Source: Bdellovibrionota bacterium (lineage in GTDB: Bacteria; Bdellovibrionota; UBA1018; CAIPTA01; JAALKR01). From it: DNA of 64,000 bases. The notes below the pieces were generated by a model. That model did not search any database. It was not told the origin of the DNA and saw only the letters and a program-made list of their open reading frames with translations. Location: the NCBI GenBank assembly GCA_965207455.1, contig CBDBMJ010000003.1, forward strand, positions 128,001 through 192,000. The letters are read 5' to 3'. Below are positions 19,310 through 46,491 of this stretch, one piece after another (positions within the stretch are counted from its first letter, which is position 1; each line of letters opens with the position of its first letter). Made by a program: the position numbers and the translations under genes.

Positions 19310-20608
19310 CTATAGATTATCAACGGAGATAGGCGTTTTGCTACAAGAAGCATTTCTCCCACCAATCGAACATATATCCGTAGTTGTGGCACCCAGTTCC
19401 CCATAGGCGTTCCCTCCCCAGCATTTTGCAGTTCCACCACTAATAAGTGCGCAAATGTGATCATCTTCAGTTTTGATTTCACTGGCATCGCTTAAACCTG
19501 AAACCGTAACTGGTGTATCGCTATCTGTTGTACTATTATTGCCCAGTTCTCCCCACTCATTCCTTCCCCAGCACTTCACAGTACCCGCTTCATCTATTTC
19601 CGTGGTGGCTGTATCATCTTCTAAAACTGCACAACTAAATCGATCTCCTAAAGCAAGTTGACTTGCATTATTTAAACCAGAAACCGTAACTGGTGTTGGG
19701 CTATCTGTTGTACTATTATCACCGAGTTGCCCGTTATCATTCTTTCCCCAGCATTTTACTGTACTGCCACTAATAATTGCGCAAGTGTGATCTACTCCTA
19801 TGGAGACTTGGGTTGCATTGGATAAGCCAGTAACCGTAACTGGCGCTGGACTACAGGCCTCATCATTACATGTATCTGTAGTCGTGGCACCTAACTGTCC
19901 AGATTCATTATACCCCCAGCATTTTACCGTGGCACCACTAACAACTGCACAAGCGTGCAAAGGTCCTGCGGACATTTGAGTGATACCGCTTAAGCTAGAC
20001 ACTGCAACGGGTGTTAGACTATTGCTTGCGCTACCTCTACCCAATTGTCCAGTGCCATTACCCCCCCAGCATTTTGCAGTATTATCCTTTAAAAGAGCGC
20101 AACTGTGGAACTCTCCTGCAAAAACTTTCTTGGCATTACTTAGGCCAGAAACCACAACTGGTGTTGTGCTTTTATCTCCCTCACTACCGCCACTGTTATT
20201 ACCCAGTTGACCATCCCTATTATTTCCCCAACACTTTACAGTACCGCCAATGATAAGTGCACAAGCGTGACCGTGTCCCAAAGAAATTTGACTTACACTG
20301 CTTACGCCGGAAACTGTAACCGCTGCTATGCTATCGGTTGTGCTGTCATTGCCCAGCTGACCAAACTCATTCTTTCCCCAGCATTTTACCGTGCCACCGC
20401 TAATAATTGAGCAGCTGTATTGAGTTCCTGTGGCAATTTGTGTGACAACAGTGCTTGGGTTTGGGTTTGGGTTTGGGTCTGGGTCTGGGCCTGGACTCGG
20501 GATCGGATCCGGTTCATCTGCTAGGTCCGTTATAGTTACTAACGGATCAGCACATGCACTCAACAAAAGAAAAAGAATTGCTGGTAAGATAAAAAGTTTT
20601 TTAAACAT
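19310..20608 (-). CDS. RCC1-repeat (beta-propeller) lipoprotein
   Basis: RBS AGGAGG, lipobox LSAC, PD/PN linker, seven KCWG.N..G[QE]LG repeats. Confidence 0.92.
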   Translation of the reverse strand: MFKKLFILPAILFLLLSACADPLVTITDLADEPDPIPSPGPDPDPNPNPNPSTVVTQIATGTQYSCSIISGGTVKCWGKNEFGQLGNDSTTDSIAAVTVSGVSSVSQISLGHGHACALIIGGTVKCWGNNRDGQLGNNSGGSEGDKSTTPVVVSGLSNAKKVFAGEFHSCALLKDNTAKCWGGNGTGQLGRGSASNSLTPVAVSSLSGITQMSAGPLHACAVVSGATVKCWGYNESGQLGATTTDTCNDEACSPAPVTVTGLSNATQVSIGVDHTCAIISGSTVKCWGKNDNGQLGDNSTTDSPTPVTVSGLNNASQLALGDRFSCAVLEDDTATTEIDEAGTVKCWGRNEWGELGNNSTTDSDTPVTVSGLSDASEIKTEDDHICALISGGTAKCWGGNAYGELGATTTDICSIGGRNASCSKTPISVDNL

Positions 20609-20641
20609 CGTCCTCCTATTACATACTATCAATTACTATGA

Positions 20642-20668
20642 GTATCGGTGAGCCAAAAGAAAACTTTA
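20642..20668 (-). promoter_or_regulatory. sigma28 (FliA)-like promoter of the RCC1 gene
   Basis: Minus strand TAAAGTTT-11 nt-ACCGATAC versus consensus TAAAGTTT-N11-GCCGATAA. Confidence 0.65.
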
Positions 20669-20946
20669 ATTTCCGTTACAATATTTCATGAATTTAGAAG
20701 AGCGTGTACAAGAAACCGGCTAAATCCCATCATTTGTTTTCCTCTCCGATTGATTAAAAAATCAATGCCCCATAAAAAGTAACAGCACTTTAAAAAGATA
20801 TTGTAGTTTTTTTATAAAATAAAAATTATTTATATCGACAAAATAAAACATTTTATAATTTAATCTTACCGACAGTCAACACTCATTTGTGGTCAAAAAA
20901 ATAATTGCAAGCGGTACGCACACTTTTAAAGTAAAAAATATTTATC

Positions 20947-22719
20947 TGTGAAACGGAAATAAGTGCATCATCCTTGCTCAAACTCCATTTTTATGGGTAT
21001 AGGAATCAAGCTACATCCATATTTATCTCTAAGTTACCCGTTCAGGCTACTTTAGCCTATGAATTTCACTGCTGTTTACTAAATTGAATAATAGAATCCA
21101 GAGAAAAAGGATTTTTCTAAAATTAATTCTGGGAATAGCTTAAAAATGATCTAACCGTACGCGGTGGAATGTATCTCTGTTGATAGGTCATCGAAAATCT
21201 TTATTAACTTTTTCTGAATCTCCTTTTTGAATGAGAGGATCAATCGCATAAAGTCAAAAGTTTTCATGATAGCAAAGGTTGTTTCTGTATACACGATAAT
21301 ATCAGGGTTTTTCTCCTCTGGTCGCTTTTGCCTGTATGTTTTTAATGTGAAATCATCAAGTGATTCACACTCTTCCGAGTTAAGAAAGAGATTGAAAAGG
21401 TTGTAAGCAATCGTTCCCATTACAACCCTAAAGACAACCTGGGTGTATTTTTTGGAAGGTAGTTTCTCTAGTCCCTGAAAGCACTTCATTTGGCGGTGAG
21501 ATTCTTCAATTTCTGTGCGCAAGTCATACGTGCTTAAAACTGCCTTTGCTGATTTATTTTTCCTAGTATCTGCAAAAATAATGTTTTCTTCCTCACCGTT
21601 TCTCTTTGTAAAATTAACTAATACACCACTTTTAAATACAGAAAACGATTTCCAGTCCAAATCGTCCTCCTTAAGTTCCTTTATTCTTTGTTTGTGTCTT
21701 GTGGGGTGAGGTGCCCATTTATTTTCTGCCAAAGCTTCAGCAACTGCGTATTTACTTACCTCTAAACTCTTTTTTAAGGGAATGCAGACATCAATTCCAC
21801 GATCCTGCTTTAAAGAGGTTATCCATTTGCTATCTAAAAAACCTCTATCCATGATTAAAACGGAATCTCTTTCAAAATTAAAGTTCTTTACCAGTTCTCT
21901 TCCAAGGGGAAGGTCATGCTCATTGATAGGGGAAAATTTCATTGCACGAATAATTCCCTTTCGGTCGATGATTTCTTGAATCCAGACAACCTTATATCCA
22001 TACTCAGAATTATTCTCCGCATTTTTTAAAACTCCAGCACCTTGAAAACTTTCGAAAAGATGTTTTGGAATATGTAACTTAGTTCCATCAATAATATAGT
22101 GATGAGTTCTTCCAACCGACTGCTCTTTGAATATATTATTTAGGATACCATTAAACCAATCTACTATATCCCCTGCCTTAGTTGATAGTAAGACGTGTTT
22201 TAGAGTCTCTCCATGAAATGCAACCTCTCTAGGGTACTTATTTTTTCTATTAAACCCATCTTCCAGCACTTTAGCTGAGTATCCTAATTTAGCTATTAGC
22301 TCTGCTGAATTTAACATATAAGGTGCTGAAACTAACGAGTGTTCATCATTTAGCCGTTGAATAATCTGCGCTAATAAAAGAAACTCAATAGGAACTTCAT
22401 ATCTTTTTCTTGGATCAGGAAAGGACTTTAATACATCCTGCAAGAACCCTTCATCGAGAGCATATTTGGCAATGGAATCGACCGGCATTTTTTGACTTAT
22501 TCTAACAGACTCTATAATGCCTTTCTTCAGTGATTCAATCGTCTTTTTCTTATCATTTTTTATTATTGGTAGATCAGGAAACATTCTAAAAGGTTAAATT
22601 ATTTTTGATCAAAACGCATGATTATTTTTCATACACGGTATTGGGGTTCAAATGAAGAATTTTTCAACACCGTTTCTTGTATTTATTTTTTCTTTGACAC
22701 GAATTCTCTCCGTTTCACA
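20947..22719 (-). mobile_element. IS4-family insertion sequence (about 1.77 kb)
   Basis: Terminal inverted repeats TGTGAAACGGA (20947-20957) and TCCGTTTCACA (22709-22719) enclose a DDE transposase; no target duplication seen. Confidence 0.75.
21151..22584 (-). CDS. DDE transposase, IS4 family
   Basis: IIDGT, IMDRGF, and YDLRTEIEESHRQMK matching the Y-2-R-3-E-6-K (YREK) signature. Confidence 0.9.
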   Translation of the reverse strand: MFPDLPIIKNDKKKTIESLKKGIIESVRISQKMPVDSIAKYALDEGFLQDVLKSFPDPRKRYEVPIEFLLLAQIIQRLNDEHSLVSAPYMLNSAELIAKLGYSAKVLEDGFNRKNKYPREVAFHGETLKHVLLSTKAGDIVDWFNGILNNIFKEQSVGRTHHYIIDGTKLHIPKHLFESFQGAGVLKNAENNSEYGYKVVWIQEIIDRKGIIRAMKFSPINEHDLPLGRELVKNFNFERDSVLIMDRGFLDSKWITSLKQDRGIDVCIPLKKSLEVSKYAVAEALAENKWAPHPTRHKQRIKELKEDDLDWKSFSVFKSGVLVNFTKRNGEEENIIFADTRKNKSAKAVLSTYDLRTEIEESHRQMKCFQGLEKLPSKKYTQVVFRVVMGTIAYNLFNLFLNSEECESLDDFTLKTYRQKRPEEKNPDIIVYTETTFAIMKTFDFMRLILSFKKEIQKKLIKIFDDLSTEIHSTAYG

Positions 22720-22801: not shown

Positions 22802-23689
22802 ATGCGCTTACTATACATATTTTTTATTCTATCTGTTACCGGTTGTGCGGATTACAGAAAACTAAACGGGTGTCCTGAAAACTTTGTTGCTGTACCTGGC
22901 TTAGCTGGATATTCAGCGGGCTTTTGTGTTTCCAAATATGAAATGAAACAGGTAGATGGAACTGGTCAAGCCATATCACAACCTAAAACAGCACCGTGGA
23001 ACAATCTAACCCATGCTACTGCCCTCGCTGCTTGTAGAGCTATGGGAGAAGGCTATGATTTAATCACAAACGACGAGTGGCAAGTGCTGGCTAGAAACAT
23101 TGAGTTTGTACGATGGAATTGGTCTGGAAGAACTATTGGATCTGCCGGTGGTATTAACCGGGGAATATTTAGTTTCAATAGCCAGCCTCTTGAGGCCTCT
23201 GATGATGATAATGAGGCTTGTTTTAAGGTTCCAAACCTCACAGGTTCCTGCGATGCGAACACTTGGCACCCTAATCGACGAACACATATCCTTCCTAATG
23301 CTCAGATTATTTGGGATGTGGCAGGAAATAGTGCCTCTTTTGTACGCGGTGCTGTTAAAAAAAATCTTGATTATGATGAGGATAGCACTGATTATGTATC
23401 GCAAATAACAGACGCAAGCTACAGCCAGACGGCTGGTCTAATAATAGGAGAAATAACAGGTGTGGAAAGAACGGCCAAAGGGCATTTTGGTTCTGCAGGA
23501 GATTATAGTGAATTAGATACAGATCCTTTTGGAGGATTGGGTCTAGCATCGAAACTGAATCGTGATAACTATGACTTTATGACCCGAGGTGGTCTTCCAA
23601 GATATCGTGTCGGTGCTATTTTTAGTATGGACAAGGTTGATGGAAGCATTCATCATCAAACTGGTTTTCGGTGTGTGTATCATCGATAA
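22802..23689 (+). CDS. Lipoprotein with FGE-sulfatase/SUMF1-like domain
   Basis: Lipobox VTGC; CPENF, FCVSKYEMK, GYDLITNDEWQ, WDVAGN, GFRC; paralog of 5444-6370. Confidence 0.75.
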   Translation: MRLLYIFFILSVTGCADYRKLNGCPENFVAVPGLAGYSAGFCVSKYEMKQVDGTGQAISQPKTAPWNNLTHATALAACRAMGEGYDLITNDEWQVLARNIEFVRWNWSGRTIGSAGGINRGIFSFNSQPLEASDDDNEACFKVPNLTGSCDANTWHPNRRTHILPNAQIIWDVAGNSASFVRGAVKKNLDYDEDSTDYVSQITDASYSQTAGLIIGEITGVERTAKGHFGSAGDYSELDTDPFGGLGLASKLNRDNYDFMTRGGLPRYRVGAIFSMDKVDGSIHHQTGFRCVYHR

Positions 23690-23717: not shown

Positions 23718-25046
23718 TCATCTGCCTAGAAATTTCTTGAGTAAACCCGATTTTGTCATTTGTTTTAACATCCGGTTGGTATCCGTATATTTTTTCACCA
23801 TACGATTGACATCACTCACATGAGTGCCACTCCCTAAAGCAATCCGTACTCGACGGGAACCATTGAGAATCTTGTGGTTACGTCGCTCCCGTTTCGTCAT
23901 GGATAAAATAATGGCTTCCATTTGTTTAAGTTCTTGTTCTGGGTTTGCATCTTTGAGTCGAGAGGATAGTTGCTGACCGCCTGGGAGCATTTTCAGCATA
24001 CCGCTCACGGAACCTAACTTTTTCATCATTTTCATTTGTTGCAAAAAATCTTCTAGTGTAAAGGCGCCACTAGTAGCCTTTTCAAAACTTGCCTGTGCGT
24101 CCTCTTCGCTCACCACCTCTTGGACTTTTTCCACGAGACTTACCACATCGCCCATATCGAGAATACGGTCGGCTAGTCGCTTGGGTGAGAACAGTTCCAA
24201 GGCATCCACGCTTTCTCCCATTCCCACAAACTGTATGGGAACGCCGGTGAGGTATTTAATAGAAAGAGCAGCTCCTCCTCGAGCATCGCCATCTAATTTA
24301 GTAAGAATCACACCCGTTAGTGGAATATGTTCTTGGAAAGTTTGCACCACATTCACTGCATCTTGACCCATCATGGAGTCGGCAACAAAAAGGCTAGCAT
24401 GGGGCTGTACAACTTTTTTTATGGCCGACACTTCATCCATGAGTTCCGTATCGATAGCCAATCGTCCGGCGGTATCAAAAATCACCACATCCACCACTTG
24501 TTTTTTCGCTTCTTTAATGGCAGCTTTAGAAATTTTTGCTGGGCTTTTGCTAAGATCGCTGTCGAAACAAGGAACTCCCACCTTGCTTGCCATCTGTTGG
24601 AGTTGTTCTTTAGCAGCAGGACGACGATTATCCAACGGTACTAAAAGCACGGACTTCTTTTGTTTTTTCAAGTGACCGGCTAACTTCGCTGCCGACGTTG
24701 TCTTTCCCGATCCCTGCAAACCCACCAACAATACGGAAACGGGGGGCACGGCCTTGAGGTCGAAAGAAATTTCCTCGTCACTGCCTCCCAAGAAGCGAAC
24801 AAGAGAGTCATGAACAATCTTTATCAACTGCTGACCTGGGCTTATATTTTTTAATAGGTCTTGGCTTAAAGCCTCCTGTTCCACCCCATGGAGAAACTCT
24901 TTGACAACTTTAAAGTGTACGTCTGCCTCTAGGAGCGCTAGGCGAATACCTCTTAGGGTATCCTTGAGATCCTTTTCCGTAATTTTTCCCGTGCGACCAA
25001 AGGTGCGGATGGGCTTTAAAAGCTTTTCGGTCAAGGCATCAAACAC
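23718..25046 (-). CDS. ffh: Signal recognition particle protein Ffh
   Basis: ALLEADV, GLQGSGKTT, DTAGR, TKLDGDARGGAALS; GTG start at 25046. Confidence 0.98.
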   Translation of the reverse strand: MFDALTEKLLKPIRTFGRTGKITEKDLKDTLRGIRLALLEADVHFKVVKEFLHGVEQEALSQDLLKNISPGQQLIKIVHDSLVRFLGGSDEEISFDLKAVPPVSVLLVGLQGSGKTTSAAKLAGHLKKQKKSVLLVPLDNRRPAAKEQLQQMASKVGVPCFDSDLSKSPAKISKAAIKEAKKQVVDVVIFDTAGRLAIDTELMDEVSAIKKVVQPHASLFVADSMMGQDAVNVVQTFQEHIPLTGVILTKLDGDARGGAALSIKYLTGVPIQFVGMGESVDALELFSPKRLADRILDMGDVVSLVEKVQEVVSEEDAQASFEKATSGAFTLEDFLQQMKMMKKLGSVSGMLKMLPGGQQLSSRLKDANPEQELKQMEAIILSMTKRERRNHKILNGSRRVRIALGSGTHVSDVNRMVKKYTDTNRMLKQMTKSGLLKKFLGR

Positions 25047-25212
25047 GTTTTTTTTCCCGTATATTTTATGGAGTTGCCATAGTCTACAATGCCACCATGG
25101 GCTTGTCCATATTCTATACATCTTTCCAGTAGCAATAAATTAGACAGCTCAACGCTGTTTATCCTGTTTGAACTCCCTGATTTCCAAGGGTTTTCCCTGT
25201 GTCAAATACCTC

Positions 25213-25242
25213 TTGACTATACGCCAAATACTGTATTAAAAT
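25213..25242 (+). promoter_or_regulatory. Possible sigma70 promoter of the secreted-protein operon
   Basis: TTGACT-18 nt-TAAAAT. Confidence 0.4.
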
Positions 25243-25288: not shown

Positions 25289-26733
25289 ATGAAAATTAGA
25301 AAAAAACACTCTTTTATACCCTTATTTTACTGGCGACAAGTACTAGGCACTGCCCTAGTCTTTACCCTCGCACTAACAATGTTGCCAAGTGTAGCTAGTG
25401 GCACTTGCGGTACTCAAGGCACACCTGCTTGTCCAAGCCTCAAAAACCCAGCTAGCCCAGCAAGTGGAACAGATTCAATCGGTGTAGCAGATGAAACAAA
25501 TTCAGTAGCAGCAAAAGCAAAAGCATTACAAAAAAGACAGCAAGAAGTAGCAGCAGAATTAGAACTTTGTCCGGAAACAGCACCTGCTGGTTTTGGTGCT
25601 TTCATTGATTTTATTTGGCCAGACCATTGTAATGTGTTTCATAGAGCAGCAGAAGCAGTAAATGCTCAGCTAACACCCGCATGTGCGGGTCCAACATGTA
25701 AAGCAAGTGCTGTTGAAGCAACTGAGGGGCTAAGAACTTCTGCAGAAATCTATAAATGGTCACAACGCTCTGGAATCATAGCAGCAGGAGCAGTGATAGC
25801 TTCAGACGGTTTTCAAGGAGTGGCAATGACAAGGATTCTTTAGAGTCATCTGCTAAGATGCATAAAATAGCTGGCAGTGCTTCTATTGCAGCAGGAGCAG
25901 TGGATGCTGCCTTATCTCTAAAAGCATGGAATTCCGAACGGCAAAAAGTGAATAGCATTAACTGTATATCTCCCACCACAGGTCTGCCAGTACCATCTTG
26001 TACGGCTGGAAAGGCCGCAGCGATCGAAAAAATCAACGAAGCAATTAGCGAGGCTGCTTTCATGAGTACAGCCAAAATAACTGCTGGGTCGATTGCTATA
26101 AAAATAGGAAGCGATTCTGCTAAGAGTGCTAATGACCTAGGTGATATTCCCGAACCCAAATCCGAACCTGGTGGACCCGGAATTATACCTAAACCCGAAC
26201 CTAGACCCGACAATAATGCCAAGTATGACGAAGCTTCATCAGGAAGCGCTTCTGCAATGAAAAAGGAGGATTTTCCCGAGAATGCTAGTGGTTCTTCCCG
26301 GGCAGCAATTGGACAGTCAACAAGTCAACTGGCAGCAAGTGAGAGGACAGTGGGTGAAGAAGATATTTCAATTTCTACTGTTGCTGCCGATTCCAACAAC
26401 TCAGGCTCTCCGGGTTATGGACAAGCATCCATAGGTTCTGGCGGCTTTACCAGTGGCGTGGATGGTGGCTCACAAGGAAACACTTCAGTGGGTTCTGCCA
26501 ATGGTGTAATGGATATAGGTAGTTCCGATGGTGGTTTTGGAAAAATTATAAATTCTCTTGCCGGCGATAATGGAGAATCAGGCAAAAAAAATCATATTTC
26601 TATCGCTCAATCAAGAGCTGCCTATGGGCAATCTCTAAAGTTAGGATCAGGAAGAAACTCTTCCTCTATTTTTGAACGTGTCCACAGCGCTATTAAAAGA
26701 AATATGAAGGAAGGATCTGTTTATGGAGATTAG
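25289..26733 (+). pseudogene. Secreted Gly/Ser-rich protein, frameshifted near 25810 (ORFs 25289-25843 and 25756-26733); paralog of 26723-28330
   Basis: Both ORFs align consecutively to the downstream paralog; one extra T in the TTTT run at 25810-25813 restores the frame. Confidence 0.8.
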
Positions 26734-28330
26734 AAAAAAACACTCTTTTATACCCTTATTTTACTGGCGACAAGTACTAGGCACTGCCCTAGTCTTTACC
26801 CTCGCACTAACAATGTTGCCAAACGTGGCTAAAGGAACATCAACATTTTCAGATAATGGCACTCTATTGGTAAAGGAACGCCGGTGTGAGAAAAAGCGTA
26901 CTCGGCAGGGATTTAAAAACGTTTGCTTTGATTACTTCAGGGAGGCAACACCAGAAGAAATCGCAGCTTTTAGAGGAGAAAATACCAGCGCAGTAGCTGA
27001 TAAGGGAATAGGTGTAGCAGACGGATCAGGTGGACCAAGTTTAGATACAACAGGGCCAGTAAGGCCAGCATCGGGGGAATCGCAAGCAAAAGCAAATGCA
27101 CAAATAGATCAAAGAAACGCAGATTTAACGGCAAAAAACGAACAACAAGCGCTAGCAAAAGAACAAGCACTTTGTCCAGACACAGCGCCTACTGGTTTTG
27201 GTGCTTTCATTGATTTTATTTGGCCAGACCATTGTAATGTGTTTCATAGAGCAGCAGAAGCAGTAAATGCTCAGCTAACACCCGCATGTGCGGGTCCAAC
27301 ATGTAAAGCAAGTGCTGTTGAAGCAACTGAGGGGCTGCGCACTTCTGCAGAAATCTATAAATGGTCAAATCGTGCTGGAATTGTGGCAGCAGGGGCAGTG
27401 GTAGCTTCAGAGGCTTTCAATAGTGGCAATGACAAGGATTCTTTAGAGGCATCTGCTAAGATGTATAGGGTAGCTGGTGGTGCTGCTGTTGCAGCAGGAT
27501 CTGTGGATATTGCTTTATCTCTAAAAGCATGGATGTCTGAGCAGGAAAAAGTGAACAGCATTAACTGTATATCCCCCAGCACAGGCCAACCGGACGCAGC
27601 TTGTACCGCTGGAAAAGATGCAGCGAACGTAAAAATCGACGAAGCAATTATGGAAGCTTCTCTCATGGGTAGCGCTAAAATAGTTGGTGGCTTGGGCGCT
27701 ATAAAATTAGGAAGTGATTCTGCTAAGAGTGCTAACAACCTGAGTTCAGTAAAGTCCTCCGCTCCTCCTACAAAAGTTGACCCTGGCAAGCATTACGGTA
27801 GAGATAATGAATTTGACAAAACCTCAACAGGAGGAGCTTCTGTAGCTCAAGAGGAAAAATTTCCCGACTTTAGCAGTTCATCACAGGCAGCAAGTAAAAG
27901 AGATGCTGGAGGTATTCCTACTGCCGCTTCCGACAAGTCAGACTCTCCCGGAAATTATGGACAGTCGGCATCCACGGGTTCCAGTGGATCCCTCGGTGGG
28001 TCGAATATAGATGACTCGCAAGGGAACGCTTCCAGTGGTTTTATAAAAATATCTAAGGGAGGAACATCTTGGTCTGGCGGAGGTCGTGGTCTTGCCAATG
28101 GCGTAATGGATATGAGTGGATCTGATGGTGGTTTTGGAAACATTATGAGCTCTCTTATGGGTGGCAGTCAAAAACCAGAAAACAATAACTATGTTTCTAT
28201 TGCTCAAGCCAAAGCCGACTATAAGCGCTCCCTACAGTCAGGCAAGGGTGGAAGTTCTCTATCTATTTTTGATCGCATCCACAGTGCTATCAAAAGAAAT
28301 ATGAAGGAGGGAAGCCTTTCTCCGAGGTAA
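26723..28330 (+). CDS. Secreted Cys-containing, Ala/Gly-rich protein with conserved C-terminal motif
   Basis: Signal peptide; hydrophobic Ala/Gly helices; ends SIFDRIHSAIKRNMKEGSL. Confidence 0.8.
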   Translation: MEIRKKHSFIPLFYWRQVLGTALVFTLALTMLPNVAKGTSTFSDNGTLLVKERRCEKKRTRQGFKNVCFDYFREATPEEIAAFRGENTSAVADKGIGVADGSGGPSLDTTGPVRPASGESQAKANAQIDQRNADLTAKNEQQALAKEQALCPDTAPTGFGAFIDFIWPDHCNVFHRAAEAVNAQLTPACAGPTCKASAVEATEGLRTSAEIYKWSNRAGIVAAGAVVASEAFNSGNDKDSLEASAKMYRVAGGAAVAAGSVDIALSLKAWMSEQEKVNSINCISPSTGQPDAACTAGKDAANVKIDEAIMEASLMGSAKIVGGLGAIKLGSDSAKSANNLSSVKSSAPPTKVDPGKHYGRDNEFDKTSTGGASVAQEEKFPDFSSSSQAASKRDAGGIPTAASDKSDSPGNYGQSASTGSSGSLGGSNIDDSQGNASSGFIKISKGGTSWSGGGRGLANGVMDMSGSDGGFGNIMSSLMGGSQKPENNNYVSIAQAKADYKRSLQSGKGGSSLSIFDRIHSAIKRNMKEGSLSPR

Positions 28331-28333
28331 ATT

Positions 28334-29680
28334 ATGTTTCAAAATCCATTGTCAATAATTAGCATATCTTTGTTATTCGCCTTAGGCGGAAGCAATCTCC
28401 TATATGCTAAAAGTAGCCAGGGGTGTTTTAAAGAGAACAGTGATTGCCAGAAACATTTCAAAAAAATTAAAGCATGTTTGAACGTTCCTAAAACAAGTGC
28501 ATCGTTAGTAAGAGCAGGATGCAAAAAAATAAGTACAGGCTTTCAGGATGCAACTAAATGGGATAATATTTTAGAGGCGCTCAAAACAAGTAGAAACACA
28601 AATCTTGCAGACATAACTGCCTCTTCTTCGGGGCAAAAGGATCAAAACGCTGCATGTGTGGAGCTTAACAAAAACTCATCTCAGGAAATGAAATCAGCTA
28701 TTGCTAATTTAAAGGCGGCTTTTGAGAAAATAAATAAAGGCAAAAAACTTATAGATAAAGGGATAGCAAAACTCAGTGCACAGCAAGCTGCAAATCCAAA
28801 AGAAATCAAGAAGTACCAGGAATATTCCACTGCTGCGGAAAATATAAAGAGCCAAATCAAGAAAGAAATCAGAGAGTACTCCAGTCTCTCTAAAAATTTC
28901 AACAGCAATCAAGGAAAATGTGAACAAAATGAAAGCTCCACAAGCTCGCTAAAAAAACTTTATGAAAAAGAAAAGGAATTTAAAAAAGGCAAAGGAGGTC
29001 TTATATATGCTATGGGCAAGCAGCTACACTCTTTGGCCAAAGCTCGCAATAAAAGCATTAGCGGAAGCTCAGGGGCTAATCTTCTTTCAGATGCCGACAT
29101 AAAACTACCTCCACTCCCCACTCTTGAATGGGATGAAGAAACAGAGGAAGCCCAAGCATCTTCAGATTTCACTACTTCTCTTGCAGGGAGGGCTGGAAAT
29201 AAAAATATGGACAAGATTTTAAGTTCTAGCGAAGAATCGAATCCCAATACAAGTGGTGCTTCCACAGGTTTTCGTCACTCTAGTACACCCTCTGGAGGAA
29301 CTGCCATACCTCCATCTACAGCAAGCTCCACACCATCTGCAACAGGATCCACACAATCCTCATCCGTAATTGATAGCAAAATTGAAGTTGGCGCTATTTT
29401 GGAAAATGAAGAGTCCAATCTTTTCGCTTCGATCGCTTGGTCTGGCGGTGGTGGTGGGCTTGGTAATGGAATAGCTGGCAGCATAGATCCCAGTTTTAAA
29501 AATTTCTTTAACGATCAGCCCAAGAAAAATAATCGTACATATTCCAGCTATACTAGTGACTCTTCTCCAGATAGGCATTTAGCCGAACGAAAGGAAACGA
29601 AAGATGAAACAAGAGATTCTTTATTTGACCGCATACACCTCCAAATTTCATTGCTCTATGAGCAAGGCGAGGTTCGGTAA
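28334..29680 (+). CDS. Secreted coiled-coil protein with the same C-terminal motif
   Basis: Signal peptide; Cys pairs; Ser-rich linker; ends SLFDRIHLQISLLYEQGEV. Confidence 0.8.
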   Translation: MFQNPLSIISISLLFALGGSNLLYAKSSQGCFKENSDCQKHFKKIKACLNVPKTSASLVRAGCKKISTGFQDATKWDNILEALKTSRNTNLADITASSSGQKDQNAACVELNKNSSQEMKSAIANLKAAFEKINKGKKLIDKGIAKLSAQQAANPKEIKKYQEYSTAAENIKSQIKKEIREYSSLSKNFNSNQGKCEQNESSTSSLKKLYEKEKEFKKGKGGLIYAMGKQLHSLAKARNKSISGSSGANLLSDADIKLPPLPTLEWDEETEEAQASSDFTTSLAGRAGNKNMDKILSSSEESNPNTSGASTGFRHSSTPSGGTAIPPSTASSTPSATGSTQSSSVIDSKIEVGAILENEESNLFASIAWSGGGGGLGNGIAGSIDPSFKNFFNDQPKKNNRTYSSYTSDSSPDRHLAERKETKDETRDSLFDRIHLQISLLYEQGEVR

Positions 29681-29700
29681 TTTTTAGAAAGGAAAAGAAA

Positions 29701-31185
29701 ATGCTAAACTCAAAATACATTACATTTGCTCTATTTATGGGATTTCTATTTGCATTTCCTGCTTGGAACAATCCATCTCTAGCAGCTACAGAAAAGGAAG
29801 AGTGTGAGGAGAAGGATGGTAAGTATTGGGATGAAGATGATGAGGAATGTAAAAAGAAAAGAGCGAGAAGCAGGTGCAGTAAAAACACTGATAAATATAG
29901 TTCTGCTTGCGAAAAGGCAAGGGAAGCGATAGTTGATGCTAAAGATCGCCGTAAAATAGCCCAAGCTGCTGATCTGGCAACTGCGACTACCATTGGAATA
30001 ATCAACGCAAATAATTTTAGGCCTTACGATGAAAAAGCTAGTATCAGGCAACAAAAAACTGCTTTAACAGTAACTGGAATCAGCATGGCAGCAAAGGTTG
30101 CAAACAATCTGTGGAGTGTGAGAGAACTCGATAAGGCAGCAGAGGAAGCTGAACGTGAAAGCACTAAGGTAGAGGGATTAAGAGAAAATTATAACCAAGC
30201 TCGTAGTCGAGCTCGACAAGCAAATTCTAACTCAATAGTAAATGCTGCGTTCGATGAACATTTAGATGAAAGCGAAACTATGAACGAACTATATAGAAAA
30301 AGTGCTCAAACGGCTCACGGCTCTATCCCCCTTACTGAAAAAAAGCACACTAATTTTGTGGGCGCTCTATCGACTGACGCAAAAGAGATCATTAATAAGG
30401 GTGGTGACAGCGTAAGTGCTTTTGGACGAAACGCCACACGTGCAAGGGATCAATTGAATAGTGCCAGAAGAGCTGCTGAAAATGCATCTGACGGGTCTAT
30501 GGCTGAGACTCTTCTGAACTCAGTAGTCTTAGCTACGATTCCCATAGGTCTAAGCAGTTTAAACAGACTAGAAAAAAGTCTTGAACCAGTACCACTATCA
30601 TCTGAGATAGAATTTGGTGAGAGACGTACTGTTGCTTCTACTGCTCCCGGGGATGACTTTATCAGCCTAGGTGATCTTGGTGGTGATGATAGATACGATG
30701 GCAGCGGTATTCCTGCTGGAGCGAGGCGAGGAATTGAAGCTAAAAATTCATTTCCAACGATAGAGCCAGATAAATCTGCTGCCAATAACCAAGGATTTGG
30801 TGCAGGTGTTGCTGGCGCTCCCGGCGGGGGCGGACTTGCTGGCGGTGCCAACGCTGATCCCAACTCTAATGATAATAATGATTTTGGCTATACGGGGAGT
30901 GGAAAAATTGATTATCGACCAAGCAGTGGCGCTAAAGGGCTAAACTCTGGGTTTTCCAATGCTCCCAGCAAAGCGAGTGCAATGCAAGAAGCTTTGAAAT
31001 CCTTATTGGGTGGCAAAGGGGAAAAGGATAAAAACAGTCTTTCCTTTGGAGAGAACAAGGACAGAACCTTAGCCAGTAGAAGCGGAACTAATAGTGCTAC
31101 GGATATTGGGGAGAAAAACGGGCGTACGATTTTCCAGCGCGTGCAGTCTGCGTATGAAAGAGCGCAACTGAGTGGTTCTATTTAG
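29701..31185 (+). CDS. Secreted helical protein with the same C-terminal motif
   Basis: Signal peptide; Cys pairs; Gly-rich linker; ends TIFQRVQSAYERAQLSGSI. Confidence 0.8.
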   Translation: MLNSKYITFALFMGFLFAFPAWNNPSLAATEKEECEEKDGKYWDEDDEECKKKRARSRCSKNTDKYSSACEKAREAIVDAKDRRKIAQAADLATATTIGIINANNFRPYDEKASIRQQKTALTVTGISMAAKVANNLWSVRELDKAAEEAERESTKVEGLRENYNQARSRARQANSNSIVNAAFDEHLDESETMNELYRKSAQTAHGSIPLTEKKHTNFVGALSTDAKEIINKGGDSVSAFGRNATRARDQLNSARRAAENASDGSMAETLLNSVVLATIPIGLSSLNRLEKSLEPVPLSSEIEFGERRTVASTAPGDDFISLGDLGGDDRYDGSGIPAGARRGIEAKNSFPTIEPDKSAANNQGFGAGVAGAPGGGGLAGGANADPNSNDNNDFGYTGSGKIDYRPSSGAKGLNSGFSNAPSKASAMQEALKSLLGGKGEKDKNSLSFGENKDRTLASRSGTNSATDIGEKNGRTIFQRVQSAYERAQLSGSI

Positions 31186-39146: not shown

Positions 39147-39743
39147 TTATTTTTTTGTGAAGCTTACCAGTAATGTAGTAAATTCATACTCCTCACCACT
39201 GATGATTATCTTATCCTTCACTATTCCGTTCAGGGGTAGCCCTTGGGTCGACCAACGATCCATCTCTTGTCCTATAGAGACTAAGATTACTCTTCTGTAT
39301 GTAGTTCTAAATGTTCCCGCAGGAACAGTGACTTCTACACCATCCTTTTGTTTAATAATTTTAGTGCTAATATCAGGAATCGCTCTCTTCTCTCCGTTCA
39401 CTCTGTATTCCTCTATTACACCTGTATCTCGATTGATCCTTACTATTTCTTCCTGATTTATAAGACCTTTAGATTCTATATGATAGAAAATAGAATTACC
39501 CTCCTCACTATGCACGAAACTCCTCACATGAATAGAGTCTTTACCATCAAGCTTGATAAGATAAATGGCTTCATCGCCCACCTTCCAGTCCTTTACATCT
39601 TGAGTAGCAAGCGTGGAGATTAACGCTGTTTTCATGGTTTGCGCAAGCTGCTTAGACAAATTAGGCTGAGCACCAGCGATAGTTGAACTTACTAAGCAGC
39701 CTGAGATTAGTAACGAAAATAGAGTTAATTTTAATTTTTTCAT
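39147..39743 (-). CDS. Secreted VPAG-motif protein (DUF3108-like), copy 1 of 4
   Basis: Signal peptide, DWKVGDE, INRDTG, VTVPAGTF, ends LVSFTKK. Confidence 0.8.
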   Translation of the reverse strand: MKKLKLTLFSLLISGCLVSSTIAGAQPNLSKQLAQTMKTALISTLATQDVKDWKVGDEAIYLIKLDGKDSIHVRSFVHSEEGNSIFYHIESKGLINQEEIVRINRDTGVIEEYRVNGEKRAIPDISTKIIKQKDGVEVTVPAGTFRTTYRRVILVSIGQEMDRWSTQGLPLNGIVKDKIIISGEEYEFTTLLVSFTKK

Positions 39744-39870
39744 AATGTTTCCTTTCAATTAGTTTGTTATGGTTTATATACATGCTAGACTAGCATTGAT
39801 ACACATCTTTTGCTGATGTGTCAGGAAATGTCAGACAATACAAATTTAATAACTCTGGAGGGTTGATAAA

Positions 39871-41616
39871 ATGAAATTTCAATGTAAAAAATATATTCTT
39901 GCTATAACGATAGTTGGTGTTTGTCTTTTATTAGGCAATATTGCACAAACAAATACAAATAAATATATACAAATGTTAGATACTAAAGAGCGCGTGTTGG
40001 GGGAAGCTATCGTAAAGTTTCGCCAAAAAGAAAGTCACACAACACAGGAAAAAATTCAAGCGACACAGAAAATGGAAAATATACTTCTTTCCATGGGAGT
40101 TTCCTCTTTTAAAAAATTTGCAACAGACAACCGGTTTTTCAAAGTTACATTGAGTAATGACAGGGACATGGCTCGCTTTCTAAAAGAGGCCAACAGAAAT
40201 CCAGAAATATCTTACACAGAGCCCAATTACATCTATAGATCAATCGGCTATCGAGACTCAGAGATTACTCCTAATGATCCGAATTTTCAGAAGCAATGGG
40301 CCTTACACAATACTGGTCAAGAGGATCCGCGGGGACAGGTGGGAATTGCTGGCGCAGACATAGGTGCATTAGAAGCCTGGAAAATAACCAAAGGTTCTAA
40401 AGATATAATAGTGGCAGTACTCGATACGGGCGTAGACTATAATCACAGAGACCTTTACACCAATATATACCGCAATCATGGAGAGATTGGGGATGGCAAG
40501 CAAACCAATGGCATTGATGATGATGGCAATGGCTTCATCGATGATTATATAGGATGGAATTTTTTCCATTCTAGTAACAATCCCATGGATAATAGTGTTC
40601 ACGGCACCCATTGCGCTGGAATAATCGGTGCAGAGGGTAATAATGACAAAGGCATAGTTGGCGTTTCATGGAATGTGCGCATTTTGCCTATTAAATTTAT
40701 GAGCCAACACGGAGTTGGAACAGTTGTAGGCGCTGCTCAAGCTATACAATACGCCACAAAAATGGGTGCCCATATTATGAACAACTCTTGGGGCGGACAT
40801 GAACATTCTCAAGCAATCCTAGACGCTATTAAAGAAGCCAAGGAAGCAGGAATTTTATTTGTGGCTGCCGCTGGAAATGAGACTCAGAATAGCGATACTA
40901 TTCCCCATTATCCATCTAGTTATCCAGAAGAAAATATCATATCTGTAGCAGCAACAGATAACTCCGATTATTTAAGTTCTTTTAGTAACTGGGGCAGGGA
41001 GCTTGTGGATATTGCAGCACCTGGAAGTAATATCTACAGTACAGTTCCAAACAATAAATATGCTAGCTATAGCGGAACGTCTATGGCTACCCCCCATGTG
41101 GCAGGGGCTGCGGCCTTGTTATGGAGTGTGAATAAAGAGATGACTGCAATAGAGATAAAAGATCGATTGCTTCGCTCCAGAGATACACGGTTAGCTCTAT
41201 CTCGTAAAATCCTGTCCAGTGGTCGACTAAATATCAATAATGCGATCCGTGGCATTTTCCCTGATCAAGTTCGAATTCCAAAAGAAAATGAATGGATAGA
41301 TGGTGATGCCATTGAGCCTGTTGAATCTTCCCATCCGTATGAAGGCAATTCTTCCCAAAAATGGGTAATTCATGGTCCAGAGAATGCGAAATTTATGCGA
41401 GTTCATTTCTCCCGATTGGAATTGGAAGAGAAGTTCGACTTTGTACATATTCTTGATAGTAAAGGGAATCGTATGGATGTTATTTCTGGTACATCCCTCA
41501 ATGGCACTACCTCATGGTTTGTAGTGGGAAATGAAATAACTATAAAACTTAAAACAGATTTTTCCGGAGCAGAATGGGGCTTTGCTATTAACAAATTTCA
41601 GTACATCGCACAATAG
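39871..41616 (+). CDS. Secreted S8 subtilase with propeptide and C-terminal CUB-like domain, copy 1
   Basis: DTG, HGTHCAG, GTSMATPHV triad; ESSHPY...FDFV...LKTDFS..WGF. Confidence 0.93.
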   Translation: MKFQCKKYILAITIVGVCLLLGNIAQTNTNKYIQMLDTKERVLGEAIVKFRQKESHTTQEKIQATQKMENILLSMGVSSFKKFATDNRFFKVTLSNDRDMARFLKEANRNPEISYTEPNYIYRSIGYRDSEITPNDPNFQKQWALHNTGQEDPRGQVGIAGADIGALEAWKITKGSKDIIVAVLDTGVDYNHRDLYTNIYRNHGEIGDGKQTNGIDDDGNGFIDDYIGWNFFHSSNNPMDNSVHGTHCAGIIGAEGNNDKGIVGVSWNVRILPIKFMSQHGVGTVVGAAQAIQYATKMGAHIMNNSWGGHEHSQAILDAIKEAKEAGILFVAAAGNETQNSDTIPHYPSSYPEENIISVAATDNSDYLSSFSNWGRELVDIAAPGSNIYSTVPNNKYASYSGTSMATPHVAGAAALLWSVNKEMTAIEIKDRLLRSRDTRLALSRKILSSGRLNINNAIRGIFPDQVRIPKENEWIDGDAIEPVESSHPYEGNSSQKWVIHGPENAKFMRVHFSRLELEEKFDFVHILDSKGNRMDVISGTSLNGTTSWFVVGNEITIKLKTDFSGAEWGFAINKFQYIAQ

Positions 41617-41736
41617 GGATTATTTCATCCTTTTTTGAAGCTCTCTAGCGATGTAAAAAGTCTGTGCCCATCACTAGTTTTCATTAAATTAAGACAGTTA
41701 TGGATCCAAGGGATCAGCTAAAGAAGTCGTACAAAC

Positions 41737-42211
41737 TGTTCATGACCCTCATTTGAGCTAGACACCTCCTAACCGAGGAGATGCAGTATGCAGAAATATC
41801 GAAAAAACCATTGGTGAGATTTCGCTGCAAAATCAAATTTTTAAAACAGCAAATGAAATTCTCAAAAAAAAACAGCGACGAGGAAAGTTCAGCTCGCCAA
41901 AGAAGTCATCCAGGAAATAGGTGCTGATATGAAGAAATCTATTATTTGTAAAACTTTAGAAGTTTCGCGCTCATCAATTTATTGGAAGCCGAAAGGAAAA
42001 ACTGTAACAATAAGGTAACTGCGAAAAGACCAACCTATGGACAGAAAAGGATTATGTATCAGACTGCGTTGATTCAAAGACAACCTTGAGAATGCTGAAA
42101 GGTTGGTTTAAAGATTATAATAAAGAGGCTCCACATTCAGGACTTGGAATGATGAGTCCTTTGGAGTATAAAAAATTAACCGAGGTGTCTCGTCAAATGG
42201 AGACCAAAGCA
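41737..42211 (+). mobile_element. Internally deleted IS3-family remnant (475 bp)
   Basis: TG...CA ends with imperfect inverted repeats, AAAC duplication on both sides, transposase fragments ICKTLEVSRSS and DYNKEAPHSGLGMMSPLEY. Confidence 0.8.
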
Positions 42212-42262
42212 AAACTGCCTTTGCTATATTAATCTAGCAAGGGCAGTTGGCAATAAAAATGG

Positions 42263-42868
42263 TTATTTTACTTTTGTGAAACTTACCAGCGATAAAGTAA
42301 CTGTAGGGCCACCGGCTTTTGTTTTCATTTGTACTATTCCTTCCATGGCAGTGTCTCTTTCGTTTATCCAAAATTCTAATATTTCCTTTTGTCCATTAGT
42401 CATAGATTTTGCTTTTACATAAACAGTATGGAACTCTCCTGCAGGAACAATGATTTCTCCGCCATCGGCTTGTTCAATAACTTCGATGTTGCTCTCAGGG
42501 GGAGTCTTCGCTTGTCCGTCTTCTATATATTCCTCTATTTCACCTGTATCTCGATTGATTTTTGCTTTTACTTCCTTTTTTGTGGATACTGTAATTTCCG
42601 TATGAACCCAAACAGAGTTGCCGATTTCACTGTGCACAAAACTCCTCATACGACCTATTTTGCCAGCAAGTCCGGCATCGATAACAAAGATAACCTCATC
42701 GCCTACCTTCCAGTCGATTGAGCGCTGGATAGCAAGATTGGAGATTAGTTGTGTTTTCACAGCTTGTATAAGTTGCTTAGAGAAATTAAGCTGAGCACCA
42801 ACGATGATTGGACTCACTAAGCAGCCTAAGATTAGTAACGAACATAGAGTTAAACTTAATTTTTTCAT
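42263..42868 (-). CDS. Secreted VPAG-motif protein, copy 2
   Basis: DWKVGDE, INRDTG, IIVPAGEF. Confidence 0.8.
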   Translation of the reverse strand: MKKLSLTLCSLLILGCLVSPIIVGAQLNFSKQLIQAVKTQLISNLAIQRSIDWKVGDEVIFVIDAGLAGKIGRMRSFVHSEIGNSVWVHTEITVSTKKEVKAKINRDTGEIEEYIEDGQAKTPPESNIEVIEQADGGEIIVPAGEFHTVYVKAKSMTNGQKEILEFWINERDTAMEGIVQMKTKAGGPTVTLSLVSFTKVK

Positions 42869-43037
42869 AATATTTCCTTTCAATTAGTTTGTTATAATTT
42901 AGTTCACAGTACAGTTTTAATCCTAGTACTGGACTATAGAGCTAATCAAGTAAATTTTGTGGAAAATTTAGAATTTAGTGAAATCAGTGGAAAAAAGAAT
43001 TAATACCACAGGAATAGACCGGGCGCAAAATGGTTAC

Positions 43038-43655
43038 TTATTTTTTTGTGAAGTTCAGCAGTGACGTAGTAATAATGGTAATCTCACCATTGGATTTTAC
43101 TGTCGTCTTACGTCGTACCAGTCCTCTCATGGTAGTGTCTCTTTGGTTTAGCCAAAATTCAAACTTTCGTTCTGCACTATCACCCTTCTTGGATTTCGCC
43201 TTTATATAAACAGTATGAAATTCTCCTGCAGGAACGGTGATTTTTCCACCGTCGGCTTGAACAATAATTTCAAGAGGATCCACATAAGGAGTGGCTACTT
43301 GTCCGTCCTCTAAATATTCCTCTATTTTAGCTGTATCTCGATTAATTTTTGTTCTTACTTCCCTGTTTACAAGGCCTGTAATTTGCATATGAATCCAAAT
43401 GGAGTCACCCACTTCGCTGTGTACAAACTCCTTTATACGAACTGCTTCAAGATCTCCAATCATAACAACAAAGTTGGCCTCATCGCCTACTTTCCAATCA
43501 ATTAAACGGCGAAGAGCAAACGTGGGGATTAAATTTATTTCAAGGGCTTGCATGAGCTGCTTGGATAAATTAGGTTGTGCGCCGGACGGAATGGAACTTA
43601 CTAGACAGCCTAAGGCTAGTAACGAACACAGGGTTAAACTTAATTTTTTCATCAT
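43038..43655 (-). CDS. Secreted VPAG-motif protein, copy 3
   Basis: DWKVGDE, INRDTA, ITVPAGEF. Confidence 0.8.
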   Translation of the reverse strand: MMKKLSLTLCSLLALGCLVSSIPSGAQPNLSKQLMQALEINLIPTFALRRLIDWKVGDEANFVVMIGDLEAVRIKEFVHSEVGDSIWIHMQITGLVNREVRTKINRDTAKIEEYLEDGQVATPYVDPLEIIVQADGGKITVPAGEFHTVYIKAKSKKGDSAERKFEFWLNQRDTTMRGLVRRKTTVKSNGEITIITTSLLNFTKK

Positions 43656-43783
43656 GATATTTCCTTTCGATTAGTTTATTCCGGTTTATATAATTATGTT
43701 ATACTAGCACTGAATACACATCTTGCTGATGTGTCAGGCAATGTTAGATAATACAAAATTAATAACTCTGGAGGGTTGCTAAA

Positions 43784-45502: not shown

Positions 45503-45847
45503 AGCTGAGGGTAAAAAAATATTTTCCTACTTTTCAGACAATGAATATACAAGTGCGTAAGGTTGTTTTCCGCTTATTCCTTCGGGCACATTAAAGCCTT
45601 TGGCCGTGAGAGCTCCCTATGTTTATGTTGGAAAGGTCACTTGCTAATTTCATGTTGCTCGTATAACCAGCAATTCATTTATTTGTAAAAAAATAAAGCA
45701 TTCAATTATCTTAGACACCGCAATGCACTTGGAATATGATTCAGTAGTTGTGCGCCTTAAGTCGAGAGAGACCACTGCCAAGAATACAAGAAAGTTAGGG
45801 CAGTCGCACAAATGCCCTTGCTAGTATTGGTATAGCAAAGGCAATTG

Positions 45848-45880
45848 GCGATAAGCGATAAGCGATAAGCGATAAGCGAT
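45848..45880. repeat. 7-bp tandem repeat (GCGATAA), four full copies plus GCGAT
   Basis: Read directly from the sequence. Confidence 0.9.
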
Positions 45881-45885
45881 GATCT

Positions 45886-46491
45886 CTATTTTATTTTTGT
45901 GAAACTCACCAGCGATAAGGTAATTTTAAAACCACTAGCTTTTGTTTTTAGTTGTACCATTCCTTCCATGGTAGTGTCTCTTTGGTTTAGCCAAAGTTCT
46001 AACACTTGCTCTCGCCCATTAGTCGTGGATTTCGCTTTTATGTAGACAGTGTGGAATGTTCCTGCAGGAACGGTGATTTCTCCGCCGTCGGCTTGATCAA
46101 TAACTTCAAGAGAGCTATCAGGAGGAGTCTTTGCTTGTCCGTCTTCTATATATTCCTCTACTTCACCTGTATCTCGATTGATTTTTGCTTTTACTACCTT
46201 ATTCATCTGGCCTGTAATTTCCGTATGCAGCCAGATGGAGTTGCCGACTTCACTGTGTACAAACTTCTTCATACGACCTACTTCGCCAAAAAATCCAGCC
46301 TTAATAACAAAGTTGGCCTCATCGCCTACTTTCCAATCAATTAAACGCTGGATAGCAAAATTAGGGATTACACTTGTTTCCAGGGTTTGTATGAGCTGTT
46401 TCGGTAAATTAGGCTGCGCGCTAGATGGAACGGGACTTACTAGACAGCCTAAGACTAGTAGCGAACACAGGGTTAAACTTAATTTTTTCAT
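45886..46491 (-). CDS. Secreted VPAG-motif protein, copy 4
   Basis: DWKVGDE, INRDTG, ITVPAGTF. Confidence 0.8.
   Translation of the reverse strand: MKKLSLTLCSLLVLGCLVSPVPSSAQPNLPKQLIQTLETSVIPNFAIQRLIDWKVGDEANFVIKAGFFGEVGRMKKFVHSEVGNSIWLHTEITGQMNKVVKAKINRDTGEVEEYIEDGQAKTPPDSSLEVIDQADGGEITVPAGTFHTVYIKAKSTTNGREQVLELWLNQRDTTMEGMVQLKTKASGFKITLSLVSFTKIK

Follow-up and report, generated by a model that had tools for sequence, protein, structure and literature searches.

A conserved C-terminal tail on predicted exported proteins of Bdellovibrionota, a candidate docking signal

Terminal sorting signals are a known kind of signal on exported proteins. Substrates of the type IX secretion system (T9SS) combine a signal peptide with a conserved C-terminal region after a linker, the C-terminal domain (CTD) being a beta-sandwich of 70-80 amino acids (aa; TIGR04183 / PF18962), and PEP-CTERM tails place a motif, a transmembrane helix, and a basic cluster at the C-terminus. 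The type IVb pilus exoproteins TcpF and CofJ are Sec-exported and encoded near a minor pilin, and a short terminal segment on a disordered stretch is proposed to load the protein at the pilus tip (PMC10120004). Here we describe a conserved C-terminal segment, hereafter the tail, encoded by four adjacent genes (genes 1-4) in a 64,000-nucleotide window from a Bdellovibrionota bacterium (assembly GCA_965207455.1, contig CBDBMJ010000003.1, positions 128,001 to 192,000). The window is this whole stretch, and bare coordinates refer to it.

By a hydropathy rule only, the window proteins share with TcpF and CofJ a Sec signal peptide. TcpF and CofJ carry their export signal at the mature N-terminus, with one substrate per pilus, whereas the conserved segment described here is C-terminal and occurs on 2-16 proteins per genome. 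Theirs is a type IVb pilus; ours would be a Tad (type IVc) machine, and binding of the tail is putative. Coding beside a minor pilin is seen in 5 of 5 Bdellovibrio-family genomes but neither in this genome nor in any of eight loci from its class and family f21. T9SS and PEP-CTERM proteins resemble the tail-bearing proteins (carriers) in pairing a signal peptide with a conserved C-terminal region after a linker, and differ in their diverse enzymatic cargo. The tail has no NCBIfam or Pfam match and is modeled as one helix with no beta-sandwich, unlike a T9SS CTD; the four window tails contain no hydrophobic 19-mer and have no NCBIfam match, unlike PEP-CTERM tails. By analogy, the tail may work like the TcpF signal, yet it falls outside that class because it is C-terminal, and outside T9SS and PEP-CTERM. 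Our literature search, which did not reach subscription papers, figures, or bioRxiv supplements (including Figure 1D of the Tad preprint, possibly showing tadG neighbors), found no description of the tail or its family, and we regard the family as undescribed. A flagellin C-terminal motif (bioRxiv 10.64898/2026.06.08.730854) was considered as the same motif and is unrelated.

The tail and its locus

The tail is almost certainly a real conserved motif. Its consensus is [SN]-[IL]-F-x-[RM]-[VI]-x-x-[RAK]-[YH], plus a W variant, and it is predicted to form a basic amphipathic helix of about 15 residues. Over all loci examined, we counted complete, non-redundant open reading frames (ORFs) of at least 250 aa with a tail score of at least 8 bits. 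The tail lay 60 aa or less from the C-terminus in 189 of 195 (median 23), in agreement with the strict C-terminal position that the first-pass annotation of this DNA had proposed; most loci were chosen for having a tail match, not for its position, and later models were seeded with C-terminal matches. The set of 189 may include a few spurious ORFs (e.g., in L181). Signal-like N-termini, by a crude hydropathy rule, were found in 158 of the 189 carriers versus 470 of 1,049 control ORFs, and so co-occur with the tail as anticipated. A Gly/Ser (G/S)-rich stretch precedes the tail in 136 of 189 carriers versus 62 of 1,049 controls, the cysteine count is even in 156, and the tail has a median hydrophobic moment of 0.51 with a net positive charge in 172. 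The common motif originally drawn from the four genes stands in its F (97%) and Y (76%); its final G[SE][VLI] is not general, a G being present there in 41% of the 189 tails.

The tails quoted for all four genes and the upstream sub-motifs are present in the sequence. The original pattern matches 4 of 6,214 six-frame ORFs of the genome, all within 22 aa of the stop, and has 0 matches in 100 shuffles of 1,848 ORFs, a test of uniqueness that is circular because the pattern was derived from the same four tails. An independent test hidden Markov model (HMM), built from 68 of 74 rows with none from this genome, scored gene 1 at 25.0, gene 2 at 23.2, gene 4 at 14.7, and gene 3 at 7.7 bits. Under the full 74-row model, no reversed-ORF decoy exceeded 7.3 bits. 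By score alone the tail of gene 3 is marginal; its nearest neighbor is the tail of its positional counterpart in the relative G001. All window tails, gene 3 included, lie within about 35 aa of the C-terminus. The features of the locus are as follows.

23718..25121, - strand: ffh-like ORF (SRP protein), identified by eye; divergent from the cluster, an arrangement conserved in the order
25213..25242, + strand: pair of sigma70-like hexamers ahead of gene 1, a pattern match only
25289..26733, + strand: gene 1 (type B), a recent duplicate of gene 2; assembled as ORFs 25289-25843 and 25756-26733
26665..26721, + strand: gene 1 tail (pattern and HMM score)
26723..28330, + strand: gene 2 (type B, 535 aa); signal-like N-terminus, core with Cys, G/S linker, tail
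27296..27760, + strand: three-long-helix bundle predicted in gene 2 (aa 192-346; model), with Gly/Ala-rich apolar stretches
28070..28156, + strand: gene 2 upstream sub-motifs, WSGGG.GL.NG and a predicted short amphipathic helix
28262..28318, + strand: gene 2 tail (pattern), helix predicted at aa 515-528 (model)
28334..29680, + strand: gene 3 (type C, 448 aa); coiled-coil-like core behind a signal-like N-terminus
29618..29674, + strand: gene 3 tail, the weakest match of the four (HMM score, tail neighbor)
29701..31185, + strand: gene 4 (type A, 494 aa), closing the cluster here and in relatives
31126..31182, + strand: gene 4 tail, running up to the stop codon (pattern)

Genes 1-4 are co-oriented (25289-31185), with the ffh-like gene divergent at one end and an oxidoreductase-like gene convergent at the far end, and are joined by an 11-base overlap followed by gaps of 3 and 20 bases. 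By the hydropathy rule alone, genes 2, 3, and 4 open with a hydrophobic stretch, in which gene 1 differs little from gene 2. Because genes 1 and 2 are a recent tandem duplicate with 81% mean column identity, the four genes hold three independent tails, not four. Compared with gene 2, gene 1 has two additional bases near 25800-25825, and these split it. The sole contig of sequencing run X1 across this position (depth 13) lacks two single bases there, and gene 1 is therefore probably intact and the split an assembly error. Two cautions apply: contigs lose variants, and the source sample may be the one sequenced in run X1. A third gene 2 paralog, a natural tail-less variant, ends before the tail beside two insertion sequences (about C3:312800-313850; L009:7815-8840). 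Two apparent joints in run X1, considered as a rearrangement, appear to fit this truncated paralog instead.

Three further carriers in this genome (C1:1036449, C1:1037691, and C1:1123343) bring its tails to seven. The first two open a second cluster (C1:1036449-1040595), in which two Bd0150-family carriers precede two more predicted exported proteins, and the third (C1:1123343-1124533) is solitary, upstream of kdsB/pyrG-like genes. A 407-aa protein (C1:200565-201788) has a mid-protein tail-like segment 157 aa from its end, which may be chance, and lies upstream of a LysM lytic-transglycosylase-like gene. In L057, L058, and L063, an additional W[SA]T..NRA-like motif ends some carriers and neighbors, after the tail or replacing it.

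Searches with single full-length proteins were nearly blind to the family. Gene 4 matched only itself, gene 2 returned eight matches among 1.84 billion representatives, four of them from this genome, and a gene 2 search matched 3 of 41 genomes. A 12-row tail model matched 51 of 127 class genomes at E<=0.05, and a 47-row model matched 55 of 201 phylum genomes at E<=0.01. Early tail models missed the Bdellovibrio family (f20; 1 of 34 genomes), and the matches of a later try were mostly chance. A 74-row model gave three weak C-terminal matches in f20, at 9-14 bits; a 21-row model seeded with these matched 30 of 31 f20 genomes, each with a best E<=0.0022, one seed genome being within the 31. Family f18 showed no convincing tail, its matches (10 of 28 genomes) lying in frames of 132 aa or less except for one internal match, and weak matches in 2 of 14 genomes of family f22 were not carrier-like.

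The arrangement around the cluster holds across the order: all seven order-level relatives examined (G001, G002, G003, G004, G005, G007, and G010) have 3-7 tail genes in a run divergent from ffh. In six of these a type A gene closes the run, and shortly after it come a conserved gene that we call X and a lytic-transglycosylase-like gene; the contig of G005 stops before the region downstream of the cluster. In this genome, the downstream block of the relatives, with X, sits at C1:194792-197418. Many carriers are solitary genes, and clusters elsewhere comprise divergent paralogs in a fixed order. One Bd0150-family carrier (L216:7516-8664, G347) lies within a flagellar operon, between fliI- and fliJ-like genes.

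Core families and predicted structure of the carriers

Neither Pfam nor NCBIfam gave a meaningful match to the tail or cores of the four window proteins, which upholds the initial impression that they belong to no named family. At E<=1e-4, 84 of 85 carriers had no Pfam match, the single match being DUF3011. BLAST clustering placed 198 proteins in 93 core clusters. When 13 groups were compared by hhalign, only four pairs in the matrix exceeded 20%: c3-c6 (94%), c2-type A (93%), c0-c11 (88%), and c2-type B (79%); a direct comparison of types B and A gave 21% over 131 collinear columns. Because c2 links to both types, the core of gene 4 is, by profile comparison, a distant homolog of those of genes 1 and 2. 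The gene 3 core and the Bd0150 family were unlinked to genes 1 and 2 by hhalign, and N-terminal parts do not align between types. The suggestion that genes 3 and 4 show no obvious similarity to genes 1 and 2 outside the tail stands for gene 3, and gene 4 proves to be a distant relative.

The tail had also been described as a modular unit on unrelated cargo. It does occur on several core families unlinked by profile comparison; against free modularity, a protein of that same core family supplied the nearest tail in 109 of 123 cases, as against a mean of 16.7 and a maximum of 32 after shuffling (related sequences do not count as independent here), so the tail is inherited with its protein and not swapped. 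Cargo that is unrelated in the T9SS or PEP-CTERM sense is not supported: no enzyme or adhesin domain was found on the carriers, and all have one common architecture. Judged from their sequences, the carriers are an old, fast-diverging set with a single architecture, not proteins among which a tag has moved as it might among enzymes.

The AlphaFold model of gene 2, built on a 4-row alignment (mean pLDDT 53), shows a core with three long helices at aa 192-346 (pLDDT 65-91 by block); the linker is disordered, and the tail forms a helix of its own. Foldseek with this model returned no match at E<=0.001, the best ClyA-family match having E 0.2. A wide fold search retrieved generic bundles: 8 of 50 rows were ClyA-family toxin chains, a designed bundle ranked first, and AhlB (Z 10.7, rmsd 5.2, 192 aligned) fell below the tool's threshold for bundles of about 13. 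The ESM Atlas gave no usable match for gene 4 or Bd0150. Uncharged Gly/Ala-rich 18-mers occur in most core groups and are mostly absent from type C and group c4. Gene 4 has none by this rule, though a hydrophobic 19-mer is present, and an internal hydrophobic helix found in genes 1, 2, and 4 is absent from gene 3. The ClyA-family toxins (Hbl, Ahl, Smh, Mak, and XaxAB) resemble the carriers in their operons of divergent paralogs and apolar hairpins, and perhaps in their long helical bundles; they differ in lacking a long disordered linker and tail, the Z-score is below bundle significance, and no Pfam match connects them. Pore formation by the cores is, in our estimate, doubtful.

Predation genes, candidate readers, and the role of the tail

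The tail set touches on an open question, the means by which Bdellovibrio and related bacteria hold on to their prey, break in, and kill it. In the genus Bdellovibrio, a Tad pilin gene is followed by a second carrier (W-variant tail) and then by the f20 carrier. The latter clusters at 90% with Q6MRD7, which is Bd0150, and Bd0148 is a Tad-domain protein (proteome supplement, PMC12546842); Bd0149 and Bd1079 were assigned by synteny only, Bd1079 (= X) lying between the M16 peptidase Bd1078 and the LysR protein Bd1080. Bd0149 and Bd0150 resemble the window proteins in tail pattern and position, signal-like N-terminus, Cys pairs, Gly/Ala-rich helices, and G/S linker. A tail-independent link is provided by C1:1036449 and C1:1037691, whose cores are homologous to those of the Bd0150 family, with E-values of 5e-5 and 5.6e-4.

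Published transposon sequencing (Tn-seq) on planktonic V. cholerae gave fitness values of 0.003 for Bd0148, 0.040 for Bd0149, 0.003 for Bd0150, and 0.002 for Bd1079 (PMC6561027); by these data, all four genes are essential for predation. Polarity does not explain the loss for Bd0150 because it is the last gene of its run. The same study reports pooled attachment of 0.88, rounding of 0.18, and prey survival of 83% for Bd0150, and 0.93, 0.48, and 43%, respectively, for Bd0149. The gene bd0149 has an attack-phase promoter of the FliA type (bioRxiv 10.1101/2025.05.17.654431), and both Bd0149 and Bd0150 are attack-phase induced (bioRxiv 10.1101/2025.05.17.654431, PMC6561027). By 30 min of prey contact, Bd0149 declines from 6.80 to 6.20 and Bd0150 from 6.57 to 5.98 (differences on this scale are the log2 fold changes of the supplement, so the drop is about 0.6 log2, or about 1.5-fold), and Bd0148 and Bd1079 stay flat over the same period (PMC12546842). 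Two biofilm-forming host-independent strains carry a G256V change in Bd0149 (PMC11323537). Depletion of Tad blocks prolonged attachment, rounding, and invasion; the main text of that report calls tadG 'lone' and leaves the carrier genes unmentioned (bioRxiv 10.64898/2026.07.08.737194). The Bdellovibrio Tad machine is essential, and its cargo is not known (PMC12428579, bioRxiv 10.64898/2026.07.08.737194). Overall, the tail-protein set very probably serves predation.

Neighborhood, fold, and shared essentiality point to two candidate readers of the tail, X (Bd1079-like) and the tip pilin TadG (Bd0148-like). Across the phylum, X is present in 194 and TadG in 197 of 201 genomes, each single-copy in most. 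This genome holds both, along with a Tad-like locus at C3:466-482 kb, identified visually from the starts of its ORFs. Its X (C1:195302-196081; ortholog L304:5303-6160) has no Pfam match. The X model (pLDDT 83) has a signal-like N-terminus, a PsbP/Mog1-type domain, and a C-terminal hydrophobic helix, so that X is predicted to be periplasmic and anchored in the inner membrane. Foldseek matched it to PsbP (E 1e-7), SciW (E 6e-5), EagT6 (E 1.8e-4), and DcrB. Eag (DUF1795) chaperones are cytoplasmic. They share with X a PsbP/Mog1/DcrB-like fold and are encoded beside proteins with apolar helices; X differs in having no DUF1795 match and in its signal-like N-terminus and C-terminal membrane anchor. 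Some databases label X as LPXTG-anchored, which is unfit for a diderm, and our literature search found no paper naming Bd1079.

Seen from tail loci, X adjoins in the six order-level relatives and in G236, G140, G292, G131, and G145. TadG has tail genes after it in all 5 f20 genomes examined and in 4 of 10 downstream stretches from elsewhere. G131 shows the same order, with TadG, two tail genes, and X in a single run; this suggests an ancestral operon common to all three. X as an obligatory neighbor of tail genes was rejected on the X-centred loci described below. In a complex prediction with the TadG ortholog (aa 38-733), the X domain, and a 54-aa Bd0150-type tail as scored partner, three runs gave 0.90, tail-replaced controls 0.00 and 0.02, and a TadG-replaced control 0.71, inside the required 0.20 margin; the prediction gave no answer and is used as evidence neither for nor against. 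Two side observations concern these genes. A predicted outer-membrane barrel gene (C1:196132-197418; L011:4149-5528; weak PF13557 match, E 0.001) is a possible further part: several relatives have it between X and the tail cluster, and in family f21 it adjoins X. In G211, the TadG ortholog occupies two ORFs (L256:10309-12602) though the gene is predation-essential, possibly a sequencing error.

We propose that the tail is a periplasmic docking or export signal for Tad-dependent deployment of likely membrane-active attack proteins, a tentative reading that we place slightly below an even chance. For its parts, a protein-docking signal is somewhat favored, and Tad as the export route stands slightly below even. 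Signal-like N-termini and even Cys counts suggest that carriers would be exported by Sec and folded with disulfides in the periplasm. The tail, spaced from the core by the disordered G/S linker, would then be bound by a dedicated reader, X or TadG being the candidates, and by analogy with TcpF the Tad machine would drive export at the invasive pole. Most speculatively, the different subunits of a cluster might co-assemble, with Gly/Ala-rich helices engaging the prey envelope. A more specific version, which we consider unlikely, makes the tail an address label: an Eag-like reader (Bd1079) would capture membrane-inserting subunits and the Tad pilus would deliver them to build a contact or entry pore. 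If true, it would identify the long-sought Bdellovibrio Tad cargo and give a Tad system its first C-terminal export signal.

Several observations weigh against Tad-dependent deployment. None of 20 X-centred loci has a tail gene within 5 kb, and none lies near TadG in eight loci of this class and f21 or in three of f18, a family with no convincing tail even though X and TadG are found in 17 of 17 of its genomes. In this genome, X and TadG are on a different contig from the cluster. The best fold match of X is PsbP, not Eag, and Eag chaperones are described as binding transmembrane helices, not tails. The window cores are not detectably homologous to Bd0150 (type B versus the Bd0150 family, hhalign 0.1%), and the window tails connect to Bd0150 through iterated short profiles whose first f20 matches were only 9-14 bits. 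About 104 genes are predation-essential (PMC6561027), making common essentiality weak evidence of partnership, and the stage affected is disputed, since Table 2 of that study lists Bd0150 as attachment-defective with tadC at a pooled attachment of 0.88. The proteome drop of about 1.5-fold is small, and turnover could cause it. Passage of carriers out of the periplasm, their need for the tail, and a predatory lifestyle of the window's organism are all putative.

Other roles for the tail deserve comparison. The tails of the 2-7 members of a cluster might bundle to nucleate one hetero-oligomer, such as a contact complex or a pore, making a separate reader unnecessary. In keeping with such co-assembly, carriers are usually found in clusters whose divergent paralogs keep a fixed order, tails are type-specific and co-inherited, and tripartite alpha-pore toxins recur in the fold search (8 of 50 rows). 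We nevertheless judge co-assembly rather improbable: many carriers are solitary genes, a net basic tail in 172 of 189 disfavors self-bundling, and the fold Z-scores (best such 10.7) are under the bundle threshold, with a designed bundle first. Slightly less probable again is that carriers reside in the periplasm as components of the Tad machine or as its regulators, docking through the tail without ever being exported. They share an operon with TadG in the Bdellovibrio family, their loss brings near-zero fitness as for Tad genes, and Table 2 of PMC6561027 groups Bd0150 with tadC; on the other side, extreme divergence and lineage-specific duplication (93 clusters among 198 proteins) suit prey-facing proteins better, X and TadG by contrast being single-copy in most genomes, and carrier abundance falls after prey contact while that of TadG does not.

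A direct interaction with lipid is improbable to a greater degree. A basic, amphipathic helix of about 15 residues that follows a flexible linker could tether a protein to membrane or lipopolysaccharide (LPS) of the predator envelope with no protein reader. Simple amphipathic anchors, though, usually accept any bulky residue, and the near-invariant F and preferred Y at +7 throughout the phylum suggest a specific pocket. We give very little weight to the idea that the tail is a neutral remnant, the conserved end of an old paralog family with no special role; types A and B are distant homologs and tails follow cores, as it would have it, but the motif persists behind a low-complexity linker across at least eight core groups unlinked by hhalign.

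Whichever role applies, the tail joins scattered hypothetical predation-essential genes into one phylum-wide set that an HMM can list in any predator genome. Bd1079 and Bd0148 are two testable candidate partners, and mutants of Bd0149, Bd0150, and Bd1079 have already been assayed in the transposon study (PMC6561027). Should the tail prove to be an export signal, proteins of choice could be routed through the attack apparatus of the predator.

Other features of the window

Beyond the cluster, an RCC1-repeat lipoprotein gene and a DDE transposase gene (19310-22584) are inserted between ffh and rpsP/KH-like genes, a block that is compact in relatives. Paralogous predicted lipoproteins at 5444-6370 and 22802-23689 have the common start CP.NF...FCV.KYEMK, the second with no Pfam hit. 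At 39147-46491, four copies of a predicted exported protein of ~205 aa (- strand) alternate with two copies of a predicted exported protein of ~575 aa (+ strand).

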